Source: a phage
Length of the DNA: 64,000 nt
Direction: 5' to 3' (one strand)
Sequence record: PX880099.1
Of the stretch, positions 30,458-39,271 are shown piece by piece (within the stretch, counting starts at the first letter, position 1; each line of letters opens with the position of its first letter). The position numbers and the translations under genes are program-made. The notes below the pieces were generated by a model. It made no database searches. It was not told the DNA's origin and saw nothing but the letters and a program-made list of their open reading frames with translations.

Positions 30458-31048
30458 TCAAATTATTAACGAAACCGCATGACTAAATCTTGGTTCAGAT
30501 ATAACCTCTGCTACAGTCACATATGTATCGTGCAGCCAAAAAGATTCTACTCTACAAACACAAATACCGTTGATAATGAAATCTACACAGGATTTATTAT
30601 TTTCGCACACCTGTTGACTATAAACAACCCCTAAAGAGTCATAAAGTGATCTCACTGTTGCTATCATTTCATCTGTTTCGTCTTCCTGTGAAACAAAGAA
30701 AACGAATACAGACAAGTTATTAGCGAAAGTATTGCTATTCTCTACTTCAACCGACTTACAAGGTAAAAAGGAGTAATATTTACCGCTAGGTATCAATTTC
30801 GCCTCAACCTGGTTAAGTATGCTTTGAGATGGTTTTGTTACATAAAAAAGATTTTCTGTTGGGTTTTCAACATTACTCCTTACTATGCAACGAGTGGGGT
30901 TCGAAGGATCAAAAACATGATCGAAATCGACACACACAGGTAAGTTAACAACTTTAAACTTTTTGCTAAGAATGCTTACTGCTGTAAAAATCAAACCAGC
31001 ATTTATTTTGCCAGTGAAAGTTGAACGCATAACTACTCCTCGGATCAT
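30458..31048 (-). CDS. hypothetical protein (196 aa)
   Basis: ORF. Confidence 0.5.
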   Translation of the reverse strand: MIRGVVMRSTFTGKINAGLIFTAVSILSKKFKVVNLPVCVDFDHVFDPSNPTRCIVRSNVENPTENLFYVTKPSQSILNQVEAKLIPSGKYYSFLPCKSVEVENSNTFANNLSVFVFFVSQEDETDEMIATVRSLYDSLGVVYSQQVCENNKSCVDFIINGICVCRVESFWLHDTYVTVAEVISEPRFSHAVSLII

Positions 31049-31736: not shown

Positions 31737-32246
31737 TTAAACAAAATAAAATGGTTGAGAGAGGCCCAAACGATTCTTTGGGTCGTATACATACCAAGCG
31801 TATGCTGTCTTATCTGTTCCACCTGCAACAAACGAAGGCCGTTCTGAAAGGACTATAAGGTTCGTTGGTGGATTCTTTTGATGGAACTCTCGTCGTTTCT
31901 TTGACTCCAAGAAGCCCAACCGAAGAAGATAAATACAAACATCCGCCTCTTTTAAGCTCTTTTCCAAGAACTCCATTGCTAACTTGAATGGAGGATTTGT
32001 GATTATAATGTCGGGACGATTTTCCCATTCATGACTAAAATAATCTTTACCTTCTTCAAGTTCACAATATTCTGAACCTTCAGGAAAATGGCGATAAATC
32101 GCTTCAGCTTCACCTCTACAAGGTTCTGCAAAAACCCAACCTTCTTCCTTTAGATTTTTGAAATCTATAACACTAAACAAACTATTGATTGCTTTTTGCG
32201 GTGTCGGATAATAATCGCTCGTTGGGCGATCATAATCTAATGCCAT
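31737..32246 (-). CDS. putative DNA methyltransferase (NPPF motif, N6A/N4C class)
   Basis: DIIITNPPF (motif IV-like). Confidence 0.4.
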   Translation of the reverse strand: MALDYDRPTSDYYPTPQKAINSLFSVIDFKNLKEEGWVFAEPCRGEAEAIYRHFPEGSEYCELEEGKDYFSHEWENRPDIIITNPPFKLAMEFLEKSLKEADVCIYLLRLGFLESKKRREFHQKNPPTNLIVLSERPSFVAGGTDKTAYAWYVYDPKNRLGLSQPFYFV

Positions 32247-32664
32247 CTAAAATCTCCTCTTTTGTAATATTATCCAACTCTTTAAAGGATGAAATCTCAT
32301 TTAATAATCCTATTTGATCAGCCTCTAGAGGATAAGTGTTTTTATCTGTTTTTCTAGACAGAATATCTTCAACAAACTTATCAATAGCCAAAGAAGAATC
32401 ATAAAATTTTAAAAGTTGGTAATCCATAGGAGATATTTTGTCATCTCTTAGAAATATTTCTAACATGTTTTCAGGAGTATCGTGGTTTAGTTTATGTTCA
32501 CCAAAAATATTAACTTCGTAAACATCTTTGCCAAACCAACGTTTTTTCTTTTCAACAGTATAGGTTTTTGCCACCAGACCATCTAAACAGTTTCTTGCCC
32601 TCTTACATGTTTGACGGTAAGAGTGGATAGCGCCTTCAACAAACTTAGCAGGAACTTGTAACAT
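32230..32664 (-). CDS. hypothetical protein (144 aa)
   Basis: ORF. Confidence 0.5.
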   Translation of the reverse strand: MLQVPAKFVEGAIHSYRQTCKRARNCLDGLVAKTYTVEKKKRWFGKDVYEVNIFGEHKLNHDTPENMLEIFLRDDKISPMDYQLLKFYDSSLAIDKFVEDILSRKTDKNTYPLEADQIGLLNEISSFKELDNITKEEILDGIRL

Positions 32665-32709
32665 TATTAATCTCCTATGTTTAAGAAATGCCCCCGAAGG
32701 GGCAGTTTG

Positions 32710-33402
32710 TTAAATAGCGGTTCCTTCGAAATCCGCCACATTTACGAGATTAATATTTTCAGATTTAGAAGTCAAGTTGTTTTCTGCAACAGATTTTTCT
32801 TCAGTATCCGCCTCGTTACCTGCCACGTTACGAGGTTCTTCTTCACCGTAGGGATTACCGAATTTCAAAAGATTGATTAATTCTTCTTTGGAGAAGTTTT
32901 CTAAATCATCGTCTGTTAATTCAATAATCTCGTCTTGTTCTTCAATAAATGTTTCACCACCAGAAAAAGCATCTCGCTTTTTAGCTACTTCCATAGCCTG
33001 TTCTGGTGTTGCCCCTGCATCAAGAGCAGCTAAAGCAAAGTCTGACCCACTCCCCACTGCATAATATTCTTCATCAATCGGATATGCACGTGTTGGGTTG
33101 TTACCTTCGTGCAGGAAAATACGTCCGTCTGGATGAACAACAAGTGCAATAAACTCTTCATCTTCTTTGTCTGGATCAGAATGAATCATCAAACCAGGGA
33201 CAGCATCGCGTGCTGCTTCGCACTGTAGATTTTGTTCAAACCATTGAAAGAAAGAAAGCACGGAGGTCAGACGACCAGCACCACCTACAAGGTAATCTCC
33301 AATTTTTCGGACCTTTTTGAAATTAATAGAATCTACACGTCCACCAAAAGTTACCTTACCATCACTCAAAATCTTATTTTTGGTTGCAATAATTGTCGTC
33401 AC
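32710..33402 (-). CDS. HslV-like Ntn-hydrolase peptidase (proteasome beta-type) with acidic C-terminal extension
   Basis: MTTIIATKN (Thr right after Met), GGAG, AVGSGSDFALAAL resemble HslV TTIV...GFAGG...AIGSGG..A.AAA. Confidence 0.6.
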   Translation of the reverse strand: MTTIIATKNKILSDGKVTFGGRVDSINFKKVRKIGDYLVGGAGRLTSVLSFFQWFEQNLQCEAARDAVPGLMIHSDPDKEDEEFIALVVHPDGRIFLHEGNNPTRAYPIDEEYYAVGSGSDFALAALDAGATPEQAMEVAKKRDAFSGGETFIEEQDEIIELTDDDLENFSKEELINLLKFGNPYGEEEPRNVAGNEADTEEKSVAENNLTSKSENINLVNVADFEGTAI

Positions 33403-33905
33403 TATTCTTCCTCCTCTGTTAATGTTTTAAGAACCGCTTTCCCGCCATTCACATATTTGCAGATGTATTCTATCGCACGTAGTGTCTCTTTGTCAACAAA
33501 AATTTGATCAGACGTTGCGAGCGGGTTATTAAGAAGATCACTGCAATCACGAACAAGCAGTGCTTTCTTATTAAACAAATTACTTAAGAACAGTAACTTC
33601 GCCTCTTCTTCTGTTATATGCAGAAGGCTAGGATCGGAGCCAGCTATTCCTATTATACAATCAAACAAGCTTTCTTTACTATCAGAAAGTTCTTGAAAAT
33701 GGTTTAAAAGCCAATCTTCTCCTAGACACCAACATTTAAACATTTCCAGTTTATCTCGGAGGGTCATATTCTCTAAAGTAAGAGCAATCTCTTTTTCAAT
33801 ATGGTTTACACAAATTTGACGAAATTCGTTAGGTTTTACGAGTCCCGTTTGATAGCACTCATCTATACCGCTTCTTCCGATAGCTATTGTTGCTACACCC
33901 ATCAA
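33402..33905 (-). CDS. hypothetical protein (167 aa) upstream of HslV-like gene
   Basis: ATGA-coupled to HslV-like ORF. Confidence 0.5.
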   Translation of the reverse strand: MMGVATIAIGRSGIDECYQTGLVKPNEFRQICVNHIEKEIALTLENMTLRDKLEMFKCWCLGEDWLLNHFQELSDSKESLFDCIIGIAGSDPSLLHITEEEAKLLFLSNLFNKKALLVRDCSDLLNNPLATSDQIFVDKETLRAIEYICKYVNGGKAVLKTLTEEEE

Positions 33906-33937
33906 TCCTCCTTATAAATGGCTTCCCTGCCATGTTA

Positions 33938-34696
33938 TTAAATAAACACTTCAGTAATCAGTTTAGACAAACGTCCACGTTTATTATCGTCCGTTGTCAG
34001 TTCAACGTATCCAATAAAATCTACAATTGGCTCACGAACACCTTCTTCATTTTCTGGATACAAAAGTTCCAAAATTTGATGCAGACCATTGCTACGTTTT
34101 TTAATTGCATATGTCTGGCGAACATCGCCTAATACAATAACATGCGTATTAATACCTGCACGTTCAATAAGAAGTTTAAGTGTTTCTGTTGACATAAGTT
34201 GTGCTTCGTCAATAATGACGATTGTATTATCCAGGGTAGCCCCCAACAAATAGTTAGGAATATTCAATTCGATCTTACCTGATCCAATATCGTTTTCCAA
34301 TTTGTTGGCTGTCATGAATTGCTGGAAAATACGTTTTGTAGATTCATAGTGTGCTGCTAGTTTATCTGTTTTATCCCCAGACAAGAAACCAATCTGGTCA
34401 TCTCCGACTTCAGTAGGGTTCTTAATAAAAAGTAGTTTACGGAAGTCTCCTGAACGAAGCATCTGCAAAGCTTTCCATAAAGCAACAGAGGTTTTACCAG
34501 TCCCTGCCGGAGCATTTACAACAGTCAGATCATTCCAAATCATACTTTGAACAATCTTATTTTGGTCCCCTTCAGGCATAAATTCATCTAAACGGTAATC
34601 GTCATTACCTACCGCTTTTGCTGCATAACGGCTTTCAATCTTTGCTGAATTAGCCAGTTTCTGCCGTTGTGTTTTAGCTGCGGTTTTATTTCCCAT
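33938..34696 (-). CDS. phoH: PhoH-like ATPase
   Basis: Walker A NAPAGTGKT; Walker B IIDEAQ; start taken at ATG 34696 (MGNKTAAK). Confidence 0.85.
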   Translation of the reverse strand: MGNKTAAKTQRQKLANSAKIESRYAAKAVGNDDYRLDEFMPEGDQNKIVQSMIWNDLTVVNAPAGTGKTSVALWKALQMLRSGDFRKLLFIKNPTEVGDDQIGFLSGDKTDKLAAHYESTKRIFQQFMTANKLENDIGSGKIELNIPNYLLGATLDNTIVIIDEAQLMSTETLKLLIERAGINTHVIVLGDVRQTYAIKKRSNGLHQILELLYPENEEGVREPIVDFIGYVELTTDDNKRGRLSKLITEVFI

Positions 34697-34714
34697 AGTA
34701 GCACTCCTTTTAGA

Positions 34715-34730
34715 AGGGGCCGAAGCCCCT
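34715..34730 (-). other. conserved hairpin AGGGGCCGAAGCCCCT (copy 2 of 3)
   Basis: Between lysozyme stop and phoH start. Confidence 0.6.
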
Positions 34731-34733
34731 TTA

Positions 34734-35234
34734 TTAGTTGTAAGCATCTAAAGTTCCAGAAGTCAGAACTTTAATTACTCGTTCAGCACGGTTTGGCGTC
34801 TGGCTATACCATCGGCTTTTACGCATGTTTTTACCTGCTTGAGTATAATATGCATTGCTGATTAAAGTCAAGCTATTTTGAAACCCTTCAGCACCTTTTA
34901 ACCCCAACTGGAAAACCATGTTGATTATTCCCAATTTACGAGTATCACTAACCTTATCATAGATTGGTGATAAGATAGTACTGTTTTTTATGTCTCTCTT
35001 CACTTTTGCAACATCGTCAGCAAAGATTTGACGGGCTTCTTTTTCTGTGATAACTCCATTAGTCTTACGACCAAGAAGATTATCTAAGATTTGAATAGCC
35101 TTTGCTTTATCTTTTATTTTAGTCAGAAGGTGTCCTATGCCGACTGTCCAATAACCAAGATGGTCTTGATAAACAGTAAGCTTCAGTCCTTCATCGACTC
35201 GTAGCATATCAAACTCATCTACTACTTTAGCCAT
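34734..35234 (-). CDS. T4-type lysozyme (endolysin, GH24)
   Basis: LRVDEGLKLTVYQDHLGYWTVGIGHLLTK and C-terminal RWYSQTPNRAERVI closely match T4 lysozyme. Confidence 0.95.
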   Translation of the reverse strand: MAKVVDEFDMLRVDEGLKLTVYQDHLGYWTVGIGHLLTKIKDKAKAIQILDNLLGRKTNGVITEKEARQIFADDVAKVKRDIKNSTILSPIYDKVSDTRKLGIINMVFQLGLKGAEGFQNSLTLISNAYYTQAGKNMRKSRWYSQTPNRAERVIKVLTSGTLDAYN

Positions 35235-35396: not shown

Positions 35397-35657
35397 TTAC
35401 TCCGCAATTTGAGCCATGAGATCACGCAGTTCGGTAAAACCGCCTACGTATGTTACCTCCCCGTTCACTTCAGACAGAATTTGTGGAAATGTGCGTGGAG
35501 GAACTCCGGTAAGATCAACAACTGTTTTAGTCATTGATTCTAAATCATAGTCTTGGTCAAGACTTAAATATTCAAACTGTTTATTGCGCATAGTCAATAG
35601 TTGTTTTGACATTTCACAAAATTGACAGTTAGGTTTACCAAAAATTACAAATTCCAT
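35397..35657 (-). CDS. glutaredoxin (thioredoxin-fold)
   Basis: FGKPNCQFCEMSK CxxC active-site-like; 86 aa; adjacent to rml and nrd genes. Confidence 0.7.
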   Translation of the reverse strand: MEFVIFGKPNCQFCEMSKQLLTMRNKQFEYLSLDQDYDLESMTKTVVDLTGVPPRTFPQILSEVNGEVTYVGGFTELRDLMAQIAE

Positions 35658-36499
35658 TACCTCTCCTTATTAAGTAATACTGCTAAAGACTGTTCAATAC
35701 CTTTATTTAAATCTGATTTTGTAAGATAGTGACTGGTTACTAGTTGTGACTTCACCGGACGTGCTGCTGGAGCATTATAGGTTGAAGCTGATACCGCCGA
35801 TATCTTAACAGGTTCTGGCATCTGTGTCAAGATCTTTTCCGCAAACTCCGCCCAAGAAATAAGATGGCTTCCTGCAAAATGGTAAGTCTTAACAGACCTT
35901 GACCAACCTGTTTTTAATACTTCAAAAATAGCTTCTGCTAAATCTGGAGCATATGTTGGACAAGAGAACTGATCAGCAACAATAATAAAATCACGTTGTC
36001 CATCATTATAGCGAGACAACATGGTTTTTAGAAAGTTATTTCCAAATTCGCTATATACCGAGGCTGTTCGAATAATATATGCATTTGGGTTAACTCCTCG
36101 CACCATTTTTTCACCAAGTTCTTTCGTATACCCATAATTGTTTATTGGGTTAGGTGTAGTATCTTCAAAAATAGGATGAGAATAATTAAAAATATAGTCT
36201 GTGGAAATATGCACAAAATCAATTTTAAGTTTGCTGCACACTGCCGCAATATTTGCAGGGCCATAAGCATTAACAGCCAAAGCAGTAGCAAAATCTTGTT
36301 CGGCTTTATCTACAGCCGTATAAGCGGCGCAATTAATAACACCATCTACATAATCTTCAATAATAGCGTTTCGCACAGCTTCAAAATTTGTAATATCTAC
36401 ACGTTCTTTAGGATAAATTAAAGATACATTTGCAGGGGCAACTTTACGTAAAGCTTGTCCCAGTTGTCCATTACCACCCAATACCAAATATGTTAGCAT
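35657..36499 (-). CDS. rmlD: dTDP-4-dehydrorhamnose reductase
   Basis: N-terminal YLVLGGNGQLG Rossmann motif; 280 aa; ATGA-coupled to rmlC. Confidence 0.8.
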   Translation of the reverse strand: MLTYLVLGGNGQLGQALRKVAPANVSLIYPKERVDITNFEAVRNAIIEDYVDGVINCAAYTAVDKAEQDFATALAVNAYGPANIAAVCSKLKIDFVHISTDYIFNYSHPIFEDTTPNPINNYGYTKELGEKMVRGVNPNAYIIRTASVYSEFGNNFLKTMLSRYNDGQRDFIIVADQFSCPTYAPDLAEAIFEVLKTGWSRSVKTYHFAGSHLISWAEFAEKILTQMPEPVKISAVSASTYNAPAARPVKSQLVTSHYLTKSDLNKGIEQSLAVLLNKER

Positions 36500-37059
36500 A
36501 CACCCTCGCTACGTAACTGTTGAAAAGATTTAGCCATTGCATCTTTTGTTGATAGGATAGGTTTAAAACCTTCATCAAAAATCATATCGAAGCCCCAATC
36601 GATCCCTATATCAGGATCATCCCAACGTAAACTTTGTTCACTAGAAGGGTCGTATGGAGTTGTGCATTTGTATTCAAAGATAGCATCCATACTCAAAACT
36701 ATAAAACCATGTGCCAAACCAGGTGGAAGCCAAAACTGCGTATGGTGTCGTGCACGAAGAACAACACCGTCCCAAGCACCGTAAGTAGGACTATCTTTAC
36801 GTAAGTCTACAGCGAAATCCAATACTTCACCACTTACACAACGAACAAGCTTACCTTGCGGATTATTTGTTTGAAAGTGCATTCCTCGCAAAACACCGAA
36901 GTTTGATTTAGACATGTTATCTTGAACGAAAGTTTGTCTACCAATAATATCTTCGTATTTTTGTTCATTATATGTTTCTAAAAAGAAACCACGGTCATCT
37001 TTATAAACGTCTGGTTTGATAATTACCGCACCTTCAATTTTTGTTTTTTCTACTTTCAT
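36493..37059 (-). CDS. rmlC: dTDP-4-dehydrorhamnose 3,5-epimerase
   Basis: [25 protein letters not shown]; start at ATG 37059 overlapping rmlA stop. Confidence 0.85.
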
Positions 37060-37934
37060 TTTCCCTCCGCTAATTTGAGTAGGTATTGCCCGTACTCTGT
37101 TTTCTTCAGTGAGTTTCCATGATAGACCAAAGTCTCTAAAGAAATCCACCCTTTTTTGAAAGCAATTTCTTCCAGGCACGCAATCTTCAATCCTTGACAG
37201 TTCTCAATAGTCTGCACGAATTGACCAGCTTCCATCAGACTGGCGTGTGTTCCTGTGTCAAGCCAAGTAAATCCTCGTCCGAGAACTTCTACTTGTAACT
37301 TCCTGTCTTCGAGGTAGCTGCGATTGATATCGGTGATCTCCAGTTCTCCACGCGCGGAAGGGGTTACTTCTAATGCACGTTGAATAACAGAGTTATCATA
37401 GAAATACAAACCTGTGACAGCATAATCTGATTTAGGATTTTCAGGTTTCTCTTCAATAGAAATAACTTGACGATTACTCCCAAATTCAACCACACCGAAT
37501 CGTTCAGGATCTTTCACCAAACACCCGAAGATACAAGCTCCGCCCCAAACATCTACCATCTCACTAGCGTTAATCAGTAGTTTACCAAAGCTTTGTCCGA
37601 AGAACAGGTTGTCACCTAAAATAAGAGCAACAGAGTCTTCTCCGATAAAATCTTTACCGATGATGAAAGCGTCCGCAAGACCTCGTGGCTCGGATTGGAT
37701 TGCGTAAGTGAGTTTTATCCCAAACATAGACCCATCTCCAAGAAGATGCTCAAAGTCTTCCTGATCGCCTGGTGTGGTGATGATTAAGATATCCTTAATG
37801 TCAGCCAACATCAATACCGATAAAGGGTAGTAGATCATGGGTTTGTCATACACAGGGAGCAATTGCTTGCTCACACTGCGTGTTACCGGATGAAGGCGGG
37901 TTCCACTTCCTCCCGCCAAAATAATACCTTTCAT
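37056..37934 (-). CDS. rmlA: glucose-1-phosphate thymidylyltransferase
   Basis: [39 protein letters not shown]. Confidence 0.9.
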
Positions 37935-37942
37935 AACCCTCC

Positions 37943-38935
37943 TTAAATCTTCTCACTCCACCATTGAGGGTTGTTTAAGTACCATTCAATCGTTGAGTAG
38001 AGATCTTGTTCAAATGTAGAGTTTGCACTCCAACCCAGTTCAGACTCTATTTTAGAAGGATTGATTTCATAACGCAAGTCATGTCCTTTACGATCTTCAA
38101 CAAAAGTTATCAAGTTGGAAGAAGGGTAGGTTCCTGCTTCTGGATGTACAGCATCCATGTAGTCACAAACCATATAGATGATCTCCATATTGGTTTTGGG
38201 ATTACGTGTTCCAACATTATACGTTTGACCTGGTTCTCCACCTGTTGCCACTTGAAGAATAGCTCGCGCATGATCCTCAACAAAAAGCCAGTCTCGCACC
38301 TGATCGCCTTTACCATACACCGGAATCTCTTTATTCGTCAAGATACTTGTGATGATTTTTGGGATCAGCTTTTCTGGATGTTGATAAGGTCCAAAGTTAT
38401 TGGAGCAGTTGGTTATCACAACAGGTAAACCGTAGGTACGGTACCAAGCTTTCACAAGATGGTCAGATGCTGCCTTAGACGCACTGTACGGGCTTGAAGG
38501 GGCATAAGCTGTCTCTTCGGTAAAGGGAACGCCAGAGTCTGCCATATCGCCGTACACTTCGTCTGTGGAGACGTGTACGAACATCTTCAGTTTATTTTTT
38601 GGGAGGAGCCTTGCAGCTTCCAATAAATTGTATGTGCCAATAATATTGGAGTCGATGAAAACTCGTGGATTCTTGATAGAATTATCCACATGACTCTCTG
38701 CCGCTAAGTGAATGATGAAATCGGGATTGCACTCTACTACTAAACTTTTGACCTGGGTTTCGTTTGCCAAATCTGTTATGCTTAGTTTAACGTGAGTGAT
38801 ATCGCCTACATTCTCAATATCTGCTGCATAGCCCATCTTATCAACGACAAAAACTTCGTTATTGGGATCTTGACAAAGAGAGCGCACCACGGCACTCCCA
38901 ATAAAACCAAGACCACCTGTTACCAGATAGCGCAT
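37943..38935 (-). CDS. rmlB: dTDP-glucose 4,6-dehydratase
   Basis: [30 protein letters not shown] (YxxxK), HVSTDEVYG. Confidence 0.9.
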
Positions 38936-38944
38936 CAGTTCTCC

Positions 38945-39271
38945 TTACCAGACATGTTGAGAAATAATAGTTTCCGTTTTAATGTTATATTTTTCAAGTA
39001 GCTTTGCATAGGCTTCTTTTGCATTCTCATTCAATTGCTCAAGATCTACAGCTATGCTTCCTTCTCCGCCTTCTAAATCAAGGCCATATATGCAATAAGA
39101 CTCATCCGCATCGTAGAAAGGAGAGATGCGGCTTAAGTCAAGACCTTCTTGTAAGAACCAGTTAAAATCTCCGTCAAATTCTTCTTCAATTCTAGGATCT
39201 TCTCCTACAGCCTCTTCCCACTTATTAAAAGGTGCACCCTGTAACATACGCCATTCGATATCAATACCCAT
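38945..39271 (-). CDS. hypothetical acidic protein (108 aa)
   Basis: ORF. Confidence 0.5.
   Translation of the reverse strand: MGIDIEWRMLQGAPFNKWEEAVGEDPRIEEEFDGDFNWFLQEGLDLSRISPFYDADESYCIYGLDLEGGEGSIAVDLEQLNENAKEAYAKLLEKYNIKTETIISQHVW

Follow-up and report, generated by a model that had tools for sequence, protein, structure and literature searches.

The closest described systems to the gene discussed here come from the survey of Fuchs, Alva and Lupas (2021, "An astonishing wealth of new proteasome homologs"; PMC8665760), in which the PPH/RPC phage branch of proteasome homologs was described bioinformatically and loss of helix H2 was given as its mark. The same survey reported that a long acidic pore loop accompanies BPH, the Betaproteobacteria proteasome homolog, which has no unfoldase. 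In the HslV of E. coli (EcHslV), the pocket for the C-terminal tail of the unfoldase HslU comprises F54, F57, A79/K80 on H2, and Q114 (PMC6429459). Here we examine a gene for a putative peptidase of this superfamily, together with its neighbors, in a stretch of phage DNA of 64,000 nucleotides from record PX880099.1 (hereafter the window), which derives from a Phapecoctavirus, a phAPEC8-like E. coli myophage of the subfamily Stephanstirmvirinae. We consider it reasonably probable that the gene product is a catalytically competent peptidase of the phage branch of the proteasome/HslV superfamily (PPH/RPC type) that serves as an unfoldase-independent accessory enzyme and is made with the non-structural genes.

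Fold, catalytic residues and family placement of the peptidase

The peptidase gene lies at 32710..33402 on the minus strand (as do all features below for which window coordinates are given) and, based on the open reading frame (ORF) list and the sequence, encodes a PPH-type, HslV-like N-terminal-threonine peptidase of 230 residues from a GTG start. Positions 32100–34800 of the window have 99.1–99.8% identity to the best GenBank phage records, with 57 records at at least 99%, and the peptidase itself is 99.6% identical to annotated genes of more than 60 phage records. It corresponds to gp175 of phAPEC8, which RefSeq names "peptidase HslV family" (phrog_1040); as it is already annotated there and the family was named in 2021, the gene itself is no discovery. 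The GTG is the first possible start downstream of an in-frame stop, and a Shine-Dalgarno sequence read from the DNA (GAGGAGG, 33410..33416) is positioned 7 nt upstream of it, within the end of the upstream gene. The product reads M-T-T-I-I-A-T-K-N, in agreement with the original prediction, made from the sequence alone, that the ORF begins MTTIIATKN with a threonine directly after the methionine. The codon of this residue, Thr2 (33397..33399, in the sequence GTG ACG ACA ATT), would specify the catalytic N-terminal nucleophile after removal of the initiator Met. EcHslV, which begins similarly in the alignment (MTTIV), needs only the removal of Met for its maturation, and the phage peptidase, which is without a propeptide, would be expected to mature likewise. 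The GGAG and second HslV-like segment that had also been pointed out are both present, in LVGGAGRL and YAVGSGSDFALAAL.

Several comparisons place the protein in the proteasome superfamily. It matches phrog_1040 over its full length (E 1.6e-63) and the Pfam Proteasome family PF00227 with 25.6 bits, above the gathering score of 22.4, and a profile built from 35 relatives matched solved HslV chains at 1e-12 to 4e-16 and 20S beta5 subunits at ~1e-9 to 1e-11. In the AlphaFold2 model, in which pLDDT exceeds 90 up to residue 155, the catalytic core (residues 1–155; 32938..33402) consists of a beta-sandwich and the helices H1, H3, and H4; H2 is absent, and residues 68–83 form an acidic loop. Both the Ntn alpha-beta-beta-alpha fold and a score above the Pfam gathering score of the proteasome/T1 superfamily were found for the peptidase.

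The catalytic set is complete: in HslV numbering Thr1, Asp17, Lys33, the oxyanion Gly, and Ser124 of GSG, corresponding to T2, D14, K30, G43, and S118 of the peptidase when Met is counted, as matched by alignment to the E. coli, B. subtilis, and T. maritima HslV chains. These residues are invariant among the 35 relatives. A scan of 1.84 billion cluster representatives produced 123 clusters at E 1e-10 or better, and in the 150 best clusters the catalytic residues are kept in 85–100% and the M-T start in 92–93%. Short relatives of ~140 aa with an MTT start match at E 1e-10 to 1e-15, and a relative of the peptidase is contained in 271 sequenced phage records. These data support the assignment of the phage gene to a putative proteasome/HslV-type N-terminal-threonine peptidase with all catalytic residues. 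Two findings that would have spoken against that assignment were looked for: placement in a non-proteolytic Ntn-hydrolase family, whereas the peptidase falls in the proteolytic T1 family, and a threonine elsewhere than at the mature N-terminus, whereas it directly follows Met.

The description of the gene as HslV-like holds for the proteasome/HslV-type fold and the catalytic residues but not for orthology. The NCBIfam HslV equivalog models NF003964 and TIGR03692 score the peptidase at 32.2 bits against a cutoff of 137 and at 31.4 against 157.75, respectively, and in phmmer it matches EcHslV at E ~3e-5 (27 bits) with low identity; the peptidase is not an HslV ortholog. The model also differs at the surface that HslU contacts in HslV. 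H1 (residues 45–67) is followed by the loop at 68–83 (...SDPDKEDEEF) and then directly by the strand at 84–89, where H2 is missing. Of the EcHslV pocket, F54 and F57 align with L49 and F52 of the peptidase, retaining both hydrophobic H1 positions, whereas Q114 is not kept, being aligned with Pro108. In the predicted monomer and the alignment, these two H1 positions are all that is kept of the pocket for the HslU tail. The absence of H2, the loss of Q114, and an acidic loop like that of the unfoldase-less BPH lead us to suspect that canonical docking of host HslU would be unlikely.

Judged by the description in PMC8665760 (reference sequences WP_042125023.1 for PPH and WP_140207863 for RPC), the traits of the peptidase fit PPH/RPC: it is phage-borne, it has a compact core without insertions and no propeptide, Thr1, Asp17, Lys33, and Gly47 are kept, and H2 is missing. 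However, PPH proper is ~140 aa long and the peptidase 230 aa, and although RPC-like forms have a C-terminal extension or domain, as the peptidase does, RPC is listed in that survey for Proteobacteria only, not for phages. There is also no mention in PMC8665760 of the recurrent C-terminal helix motif or the dedicated upstream partner gene that are described below. Other members of the superfamily differ more clearly. Relative to HslV (ClpQ), the peptidase is without H2, the Q114 and A79/K80 elements, and an adjacent hslU, and bears an acidic C-terminal extension of 75 aa. BPH (PMC5777263) retains H1 as well as H2, ends without a C-terminal extension, is encoded chromosomally in stress operons, and forms tetradecamers, whereas the peptidase is phage-borne, has lost H2, and has the extension. 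Unlike the 20S beta subunits (PF00227, MEROPS T1), it has no propeptide, no alpha-type partner subunits, and neither H2 nor H5. Connectase, the archaeal proteasome-fold protein ligase, lacks H1 as well as H2, and a helical S3/S4 insertion covers its active site; the peptidase, in contrast, keeps H1 and has no such insertion.

The acidic C-terminal extension that had been noted as absent from bacterial HslV is present, but it is longer than the ~50 aa originally estimated, as it comprises residues 156–230, i.e., ~75 aa, with 20 acidic and 5 basic residues. It consists of two parts. The first is a conserved helix module at residues 162–182 (LTDDDLENFSKEELINLLKFG; 32857..32919), with helices predicted at 164–169 and 172–181 (pLDDT 87–91) and a motif in which an acidic linker precedes L-T-[KR]-E-x-[LA]-x-x-[ML]-[ST]-K-[ED]-E-[LI]-[LI]-x-x-[LI]-F-[GP]. 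Among the 150 best representative clusters, 74 reach at least 30 aa past the core and 43–56 have the motif, phages without the upstream partner among them. The second part is a variable, disordered acidic tail (residues 183–230; 32710..32856 with the stop codon), in which pLDDT falls below 50 for residues 192–214 and 228–230 and which is not alignable between genera, even sister genera; the tails of relatives are net acidic. We considered whether the C-terminus could be a built-in mimic of the activating tail of HslU and rejected this possibility, since the last 40 residues are unconserved even between genera and hence there is no conserved mimic.

Some relatives have whole extra C-terminal domains in place of the tail. 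Those of the metagenomic relatives P0061–P0071 (264–379 aa) have no Pfam match on record; some have a Cys-containing stretch (e.g., KGVCKFCGK), and most end in a conserved ...KWRLHNA or ...WKLA[D]E. In the record of Escherichia phage vB_EcoM-Ro121c4YLVW (P0023), the peptidase is annotated from an internal Met as a 159-aa protein without the catalytic N-terminus, and in OR544956.1 (EP57) the tblastn match to the peptidase is broken into two pieces. Both of these may represent annotation or sequencing problems, or pseudogenes.

The upstream partner, PhoH and a natural deletion

Directly upstream of the peptidase gene is that for an orphan, all-helical, acidic protein, the homolog of phAPEC8 gp174 (33402..33902), which RefSeq names "hypothetical protein." The original prediction of a 167-aa protein at this position was correct as to the ORF; however, the product is more likely one of 166 aa from the ATG at 33902, which is the RefSeq start, than one of 167 aa from a TTG. 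No Pfam or NCBIfam match was found for gp174, and its model is confident (pLDDT 91.6). The TAG stop of this ORF (33404..33402) and the GTG of the peptidase have one base in common, an overlap that makes translational coupling plausible in this genus. In relatives the gap between the partner and peptidase genes is 5 to 42 nt, or an ORF is inserted between them.

The proposed tie between the peptidase and the upstream protein was borne out. By tblastn, gp174 is in 134 phage records, and the peptidase at at least 60% identity is in equally many; the two genes are adjacent wherever coordinates were compared. The synteny extends to two distant metagenomic phages, in which the peptidase is 51–59% identical and the ORF at the same upstream position is a gp174 homolog (32–36% identity; hhalign probability 99.5 and 99.8). 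A profile search with gp174 identified 53 members, all on phage-like contigs, with a Pfam domain in only one (a 184-aa partial match). In Aeromonas and Vibrio phages, no gp174 homolog was found next to the peptidase (hhalign probability <1%), and a fold search in BFVD gave a weak match to a 150-aa protein of an Aeromonas phage that is a sister of 2L372D (rank 4, TM 0.37–0.40). Based on these sequence comparisons, we take the predicted gp174–peptidase pair to be a real conserved unit that is confined to one phage clade. That gp174 belongs to one clade and the C-terminal helix is far more widespread indicates that the helix does not exist to bind gp174. It is feasible that gp174 is an adaptor for the peptidase. 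We also considered gp174 as an activator of the 11S/PA26 or Bpa (PafE) type, but there is no likeness to either, and its C-terminus, TLTEEEE, is not the docking motif HbYX or GQYL.

The pair is preceded by a gene for a PhoH-like P-loop NTPase (33938..34696; Pfam PhoH, E 1.2e-36), which is the first of a PhoH–partner–peptidase block. The likely start of PhoH is the ATG at 34696, with the Shine-Dalgarno sequence AAGGAG (252 aa, as in RefSeq); the mechanical ORF from 34747 overlaps the lysozyme gene and a hairpin. A terminator scan and the sequence itself showed a GC hairpin with a UUCG loop on each side of the block. One, at 32689..32704, directly follows the peptidase stop, is followed by UUUCUU, and resembles a terminator at the end of the block, and the other, at 34715..34730, is between the lysozyme stop and the PhoH start, at the upstream block boundary. 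Only the downstream hairpin precedes a short U-run, and the two could be transcript boundaries or RNA-stabilizing elements. More broadly, the genes are part of a minus-strand non-structural block that encodes ribonucleotide reductase (RNR), glutaredoxin (Grx), dTDP-sugar enzymes, lysozyme, PhoH, gp174, the peptidase, and methyltransferases, and the order RNR–Grx–lysozyme–PhoH–partner–peptidase is kept in the distant metagenomic phages. The peptidase gene is ~30 kb from the portal and major-head genes and on the opposite strand to them, and in other phages the peptidase is likewise in non-structural regions. In Aeromonas phage 2L372D (L090 1-326, 3001-3885) a PhoH-like gene is 2.7 kb upstream of the peptidase homolog, with unrelated small ORFs between. 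Some PhoH C-termini look like HbYX, and a docking tail of the HbYX or HslU kind was considered for PhoH; this was dropped, as the tails (...ITE[VIL]Y, ...ELYA, ...EVFI) simply form the terminus of the PhoH domain, and one syntenic phage (L008) has a different one.

A natural deletion within the block was identified in phage VEcB (Justusliebigvirus, MT932211.1; L009 2165-2968), in which vecB_055 is an in-frame fusion of PhoH residues 1–115 to the peptidase from residue 63 to its end. Half of PhoH and the entire partner are missing from the fusion, as are the Thr, Asp, Lys, and oxyanion Gly of the peptidase's catalytic set. Its junction is at a shared 'AAQ' microhomology, and the deleted region corresponds to 32710–34696 of the window. 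If the VEcB assembly is correct, the deletion implies that the PhoH–partner–peptidase block is dispensable for propagation, and the gp174–peptidase pair appears dispensable for growth. The block behaves as one accessory unit.

Two other observations were made in the surrounding genes. A run of dTDP-sugar genes at ~35657–39000 (L001 15558-18836) encodes glucose-1-phosphate thymidylyltransferase, dTDP-4-dehydrorhamnose 3,5-epimerase, and two nucleotide-sugar epimerase/reductases, and four glycosyltransferase genes are elsewhere in the phage genome, apart from this run. Together these genes hint that the phage directs the modification of DNA or of the cell surface with sugars. An ORF of ~190 aa at 30458–31048 (L001 10359-10931) is named 'histidyl tRNA synthetase' in RefSeq, as is a second ORF of similar size elsewhere; since ~190 aa is far too short for a complete HisRS, the annotation looks doubtful.

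Unfoldase search and rival explanations

The statement in the original prediction that the window has no AAA+ partner was confirmed by a Walker A scan of its ORFs of at least 90 aa, which identified only PhoH, an exonuclease (phrog_107), and a small AAA_33 kinase-like protein, and no AAA+ unfoldase. We also surveyed the neighbors within 8 kb of peptidase relatives on 80 viral contigs, which represent 38 lineages at 80% identity. No neighbor family was present in more than 7 of the 38 lineages and there was no linked AAA+ unfoldase; the sole recurrent P-loop neighbor was PhoH, in the same 6 lineages with gp174. The neighborhoods of peptidase relatives in four GenBank records also contained no unfoldase. 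Outside the window, phAPEC8 has one AAA ATPase (Pfam AAA, PF00004), gp014, of a clamp-loader-like family. We rejected gp014 as a specific partner of the peptidase, as its family is in 395 phage records, often named clamp loader by depositors, and is found in many phages of Gram-positive bacteria (Enterococcus, Bacillus, Staphylococcus) in which the peptidase was not found. At 139005–141404 of the phAPEC8 record (L091 41005-43404), gp014 adjoins a protein with four CapR-homology repeats and a treble-clef zinc finger, which has a weak, below-cutoff match to nuclease domains of the GIY-YIG type (T5orf172/MUG113).

The absence of a linked phage unfoldase is also what would be expected if the peptidase hijacked one from the host, forming HslV-like rings that dock on HslU or on another AAA+ protein such as ClpX, with the outcome being either a hybrid ATP-dependent protease of phage-chosen specificity or the titration of HslU away from host HslV. 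The N-terminal MTTI and the catalytic residues are the same as those of EcHslV, HslV is the closest solved structure, and the named hosts of the phages with this family are Proteobacteria, which possess HslUV. The retention of two hydrophobic pocket positions (F54/F57 of EcHslV, L49/F52 here; PMC6429459) points in the same direction. However, the pocket also uses A79/K80 on H2 and Q114 (PMC6429459), which are lost with H2 in the model and through the change to Pro108, and the acidic loop resembles that of BPH, which has no unfoldase. Furthermore, identity to EcHslV is low, as the phmmer result attests, the HslV equivalog models are missed by more than 100 bits, and Table 1 of PMC8665760 has PPH in Actinobacteria, for which no HslV is listed. 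For these reasons we regard hijacking of a host unfoldase as unlikely. A different possibility is that the peptidase is a site-specific processing enzyme or transpeptidase that, like archaeal connectase, works in monomeric or dimeric form on a single defined target, which could be gp174 itself or another protein of the phage or the host, with recognition provided by the C-terminal module. Consistent with this, a protein that has lost H2 and bears a large C-terminal appendage may be unable to form classical stacked rings, and there are the whole extra C-terminal domains of some relatives; but H1 is kept, there is no counterpart of the S3/S4 insertion over the active site of connectase, and the short relatives of ~140 aa bear no recognition appendage, so that this explanation too seems improbable to us.

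It could also be proposed that PhoH, gp174, and the peptidase form one machine, in which the PhoH NTPase supplies energy or substrate handling and gp174 is the coupling subunit. The contiguity of the three genes between the two hairpins, their order in the distant metagenomic phages, the PhoH gene near the peptidase in 2L372D, and the single VEcB deletion that strikes all three would each agree with such a machine. Its probability is nevertheless very low, as the PhoH fold is that of an SF1-helicase-like NTPase (Pfam PhoH, AAA_30, AAA_19) and not of an AAA+ unfoldase, the linkage is seen in only 6 of the 38 lineages, the peptidase also occurs without PhoH nearby, and PhoH is common in phages without this peptidase. 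Phages commonly encode capsid-maturation proteases, which brings to mind a prohead or other morphogenetic protease, yet the gene is far from the portal and major-head genes, on the other strand and among nucleotide-metabolism genes, its location is non-structural in other phages too, and VEcB is a viable isolate without the catalytic N-terminus. On gene position and the VEcB deletion we rejected a head-maturation role, which we consider to have almost no chance of being correct.

In the reading that we favor, that of an unfoldase-independent accessory peptidase, the protein would assemble, by homology to its nearest solved relatives HslV and BPH, into a closed ring or double ring with the active sites facing inward. 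In infected cells it would need no unfoldase, and its substrates would be peptides or unfolded polypeptides, the latter probably basic. The C-terminal helix and acidic tail would point outward as a docking or regulatory element, and gp174, probably made from the same message, may be a clade-specific accessory factor, i.e., a regulator, assembly factor, or substrate adaptor. Several points weigh against this reading. PMC8665760 warns that some of the new proteasome homologs may not form classical rings, and the loss of H2 from the model would remove a surface that contacts the neighboring layer in the 20S proteasome and HslU in HslV. In addition, gp174 is absent from peptidase-bearing phages of Aeromonas, Vibrio, Caulobacter, and Rhizobium, so the pair could be merely syntenic, and the VEcB deletion could be an assembly artifact. 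Finally, the searchable literature on the family, which consists of genome descriptions noting 'HslV without HslU' and the 2021 survey, yielded no activity, oligomeric state, substrate, or interaction for any member.

Possible implications for phage proteolysis

In the literature searched we found no description of either the strict pairing with gp174 or the widespread C-terminal helix motif, and no report on what the family cuts, how it is assembled, or how it benefits a lytic phage. Phages of this group that infect E. coli can be grown and engineered without difficulty, and VEcB already provides a natural deletion mutant, so the question is directly testable. A bolder interpretation, which we regard as doubtful, is that the peptidase and its partner, possibly with PhoH, are a phage-built, unfoldase-independent mini-proteasome that selectively destroys host proteins in the course of infection, for instance basic nucleoid, ribosomal, or defense proteins. 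If this were true, gp174 would be a new proteasome regulator or adaptor, and the C-terminal helix a docking element widespread among phage proteasome homologs. Proteasome-fold peptidases are the core of regulated protein degradation, and the phages discussed here bear a stripped-down version without an unfoldase; working out one member would test whether phages carry out targeted degradation of host proteins themselves, whether an ATPase is dispensable for the function of a proteasome relative, and what the binding target of the conserved C-terminal helix is.

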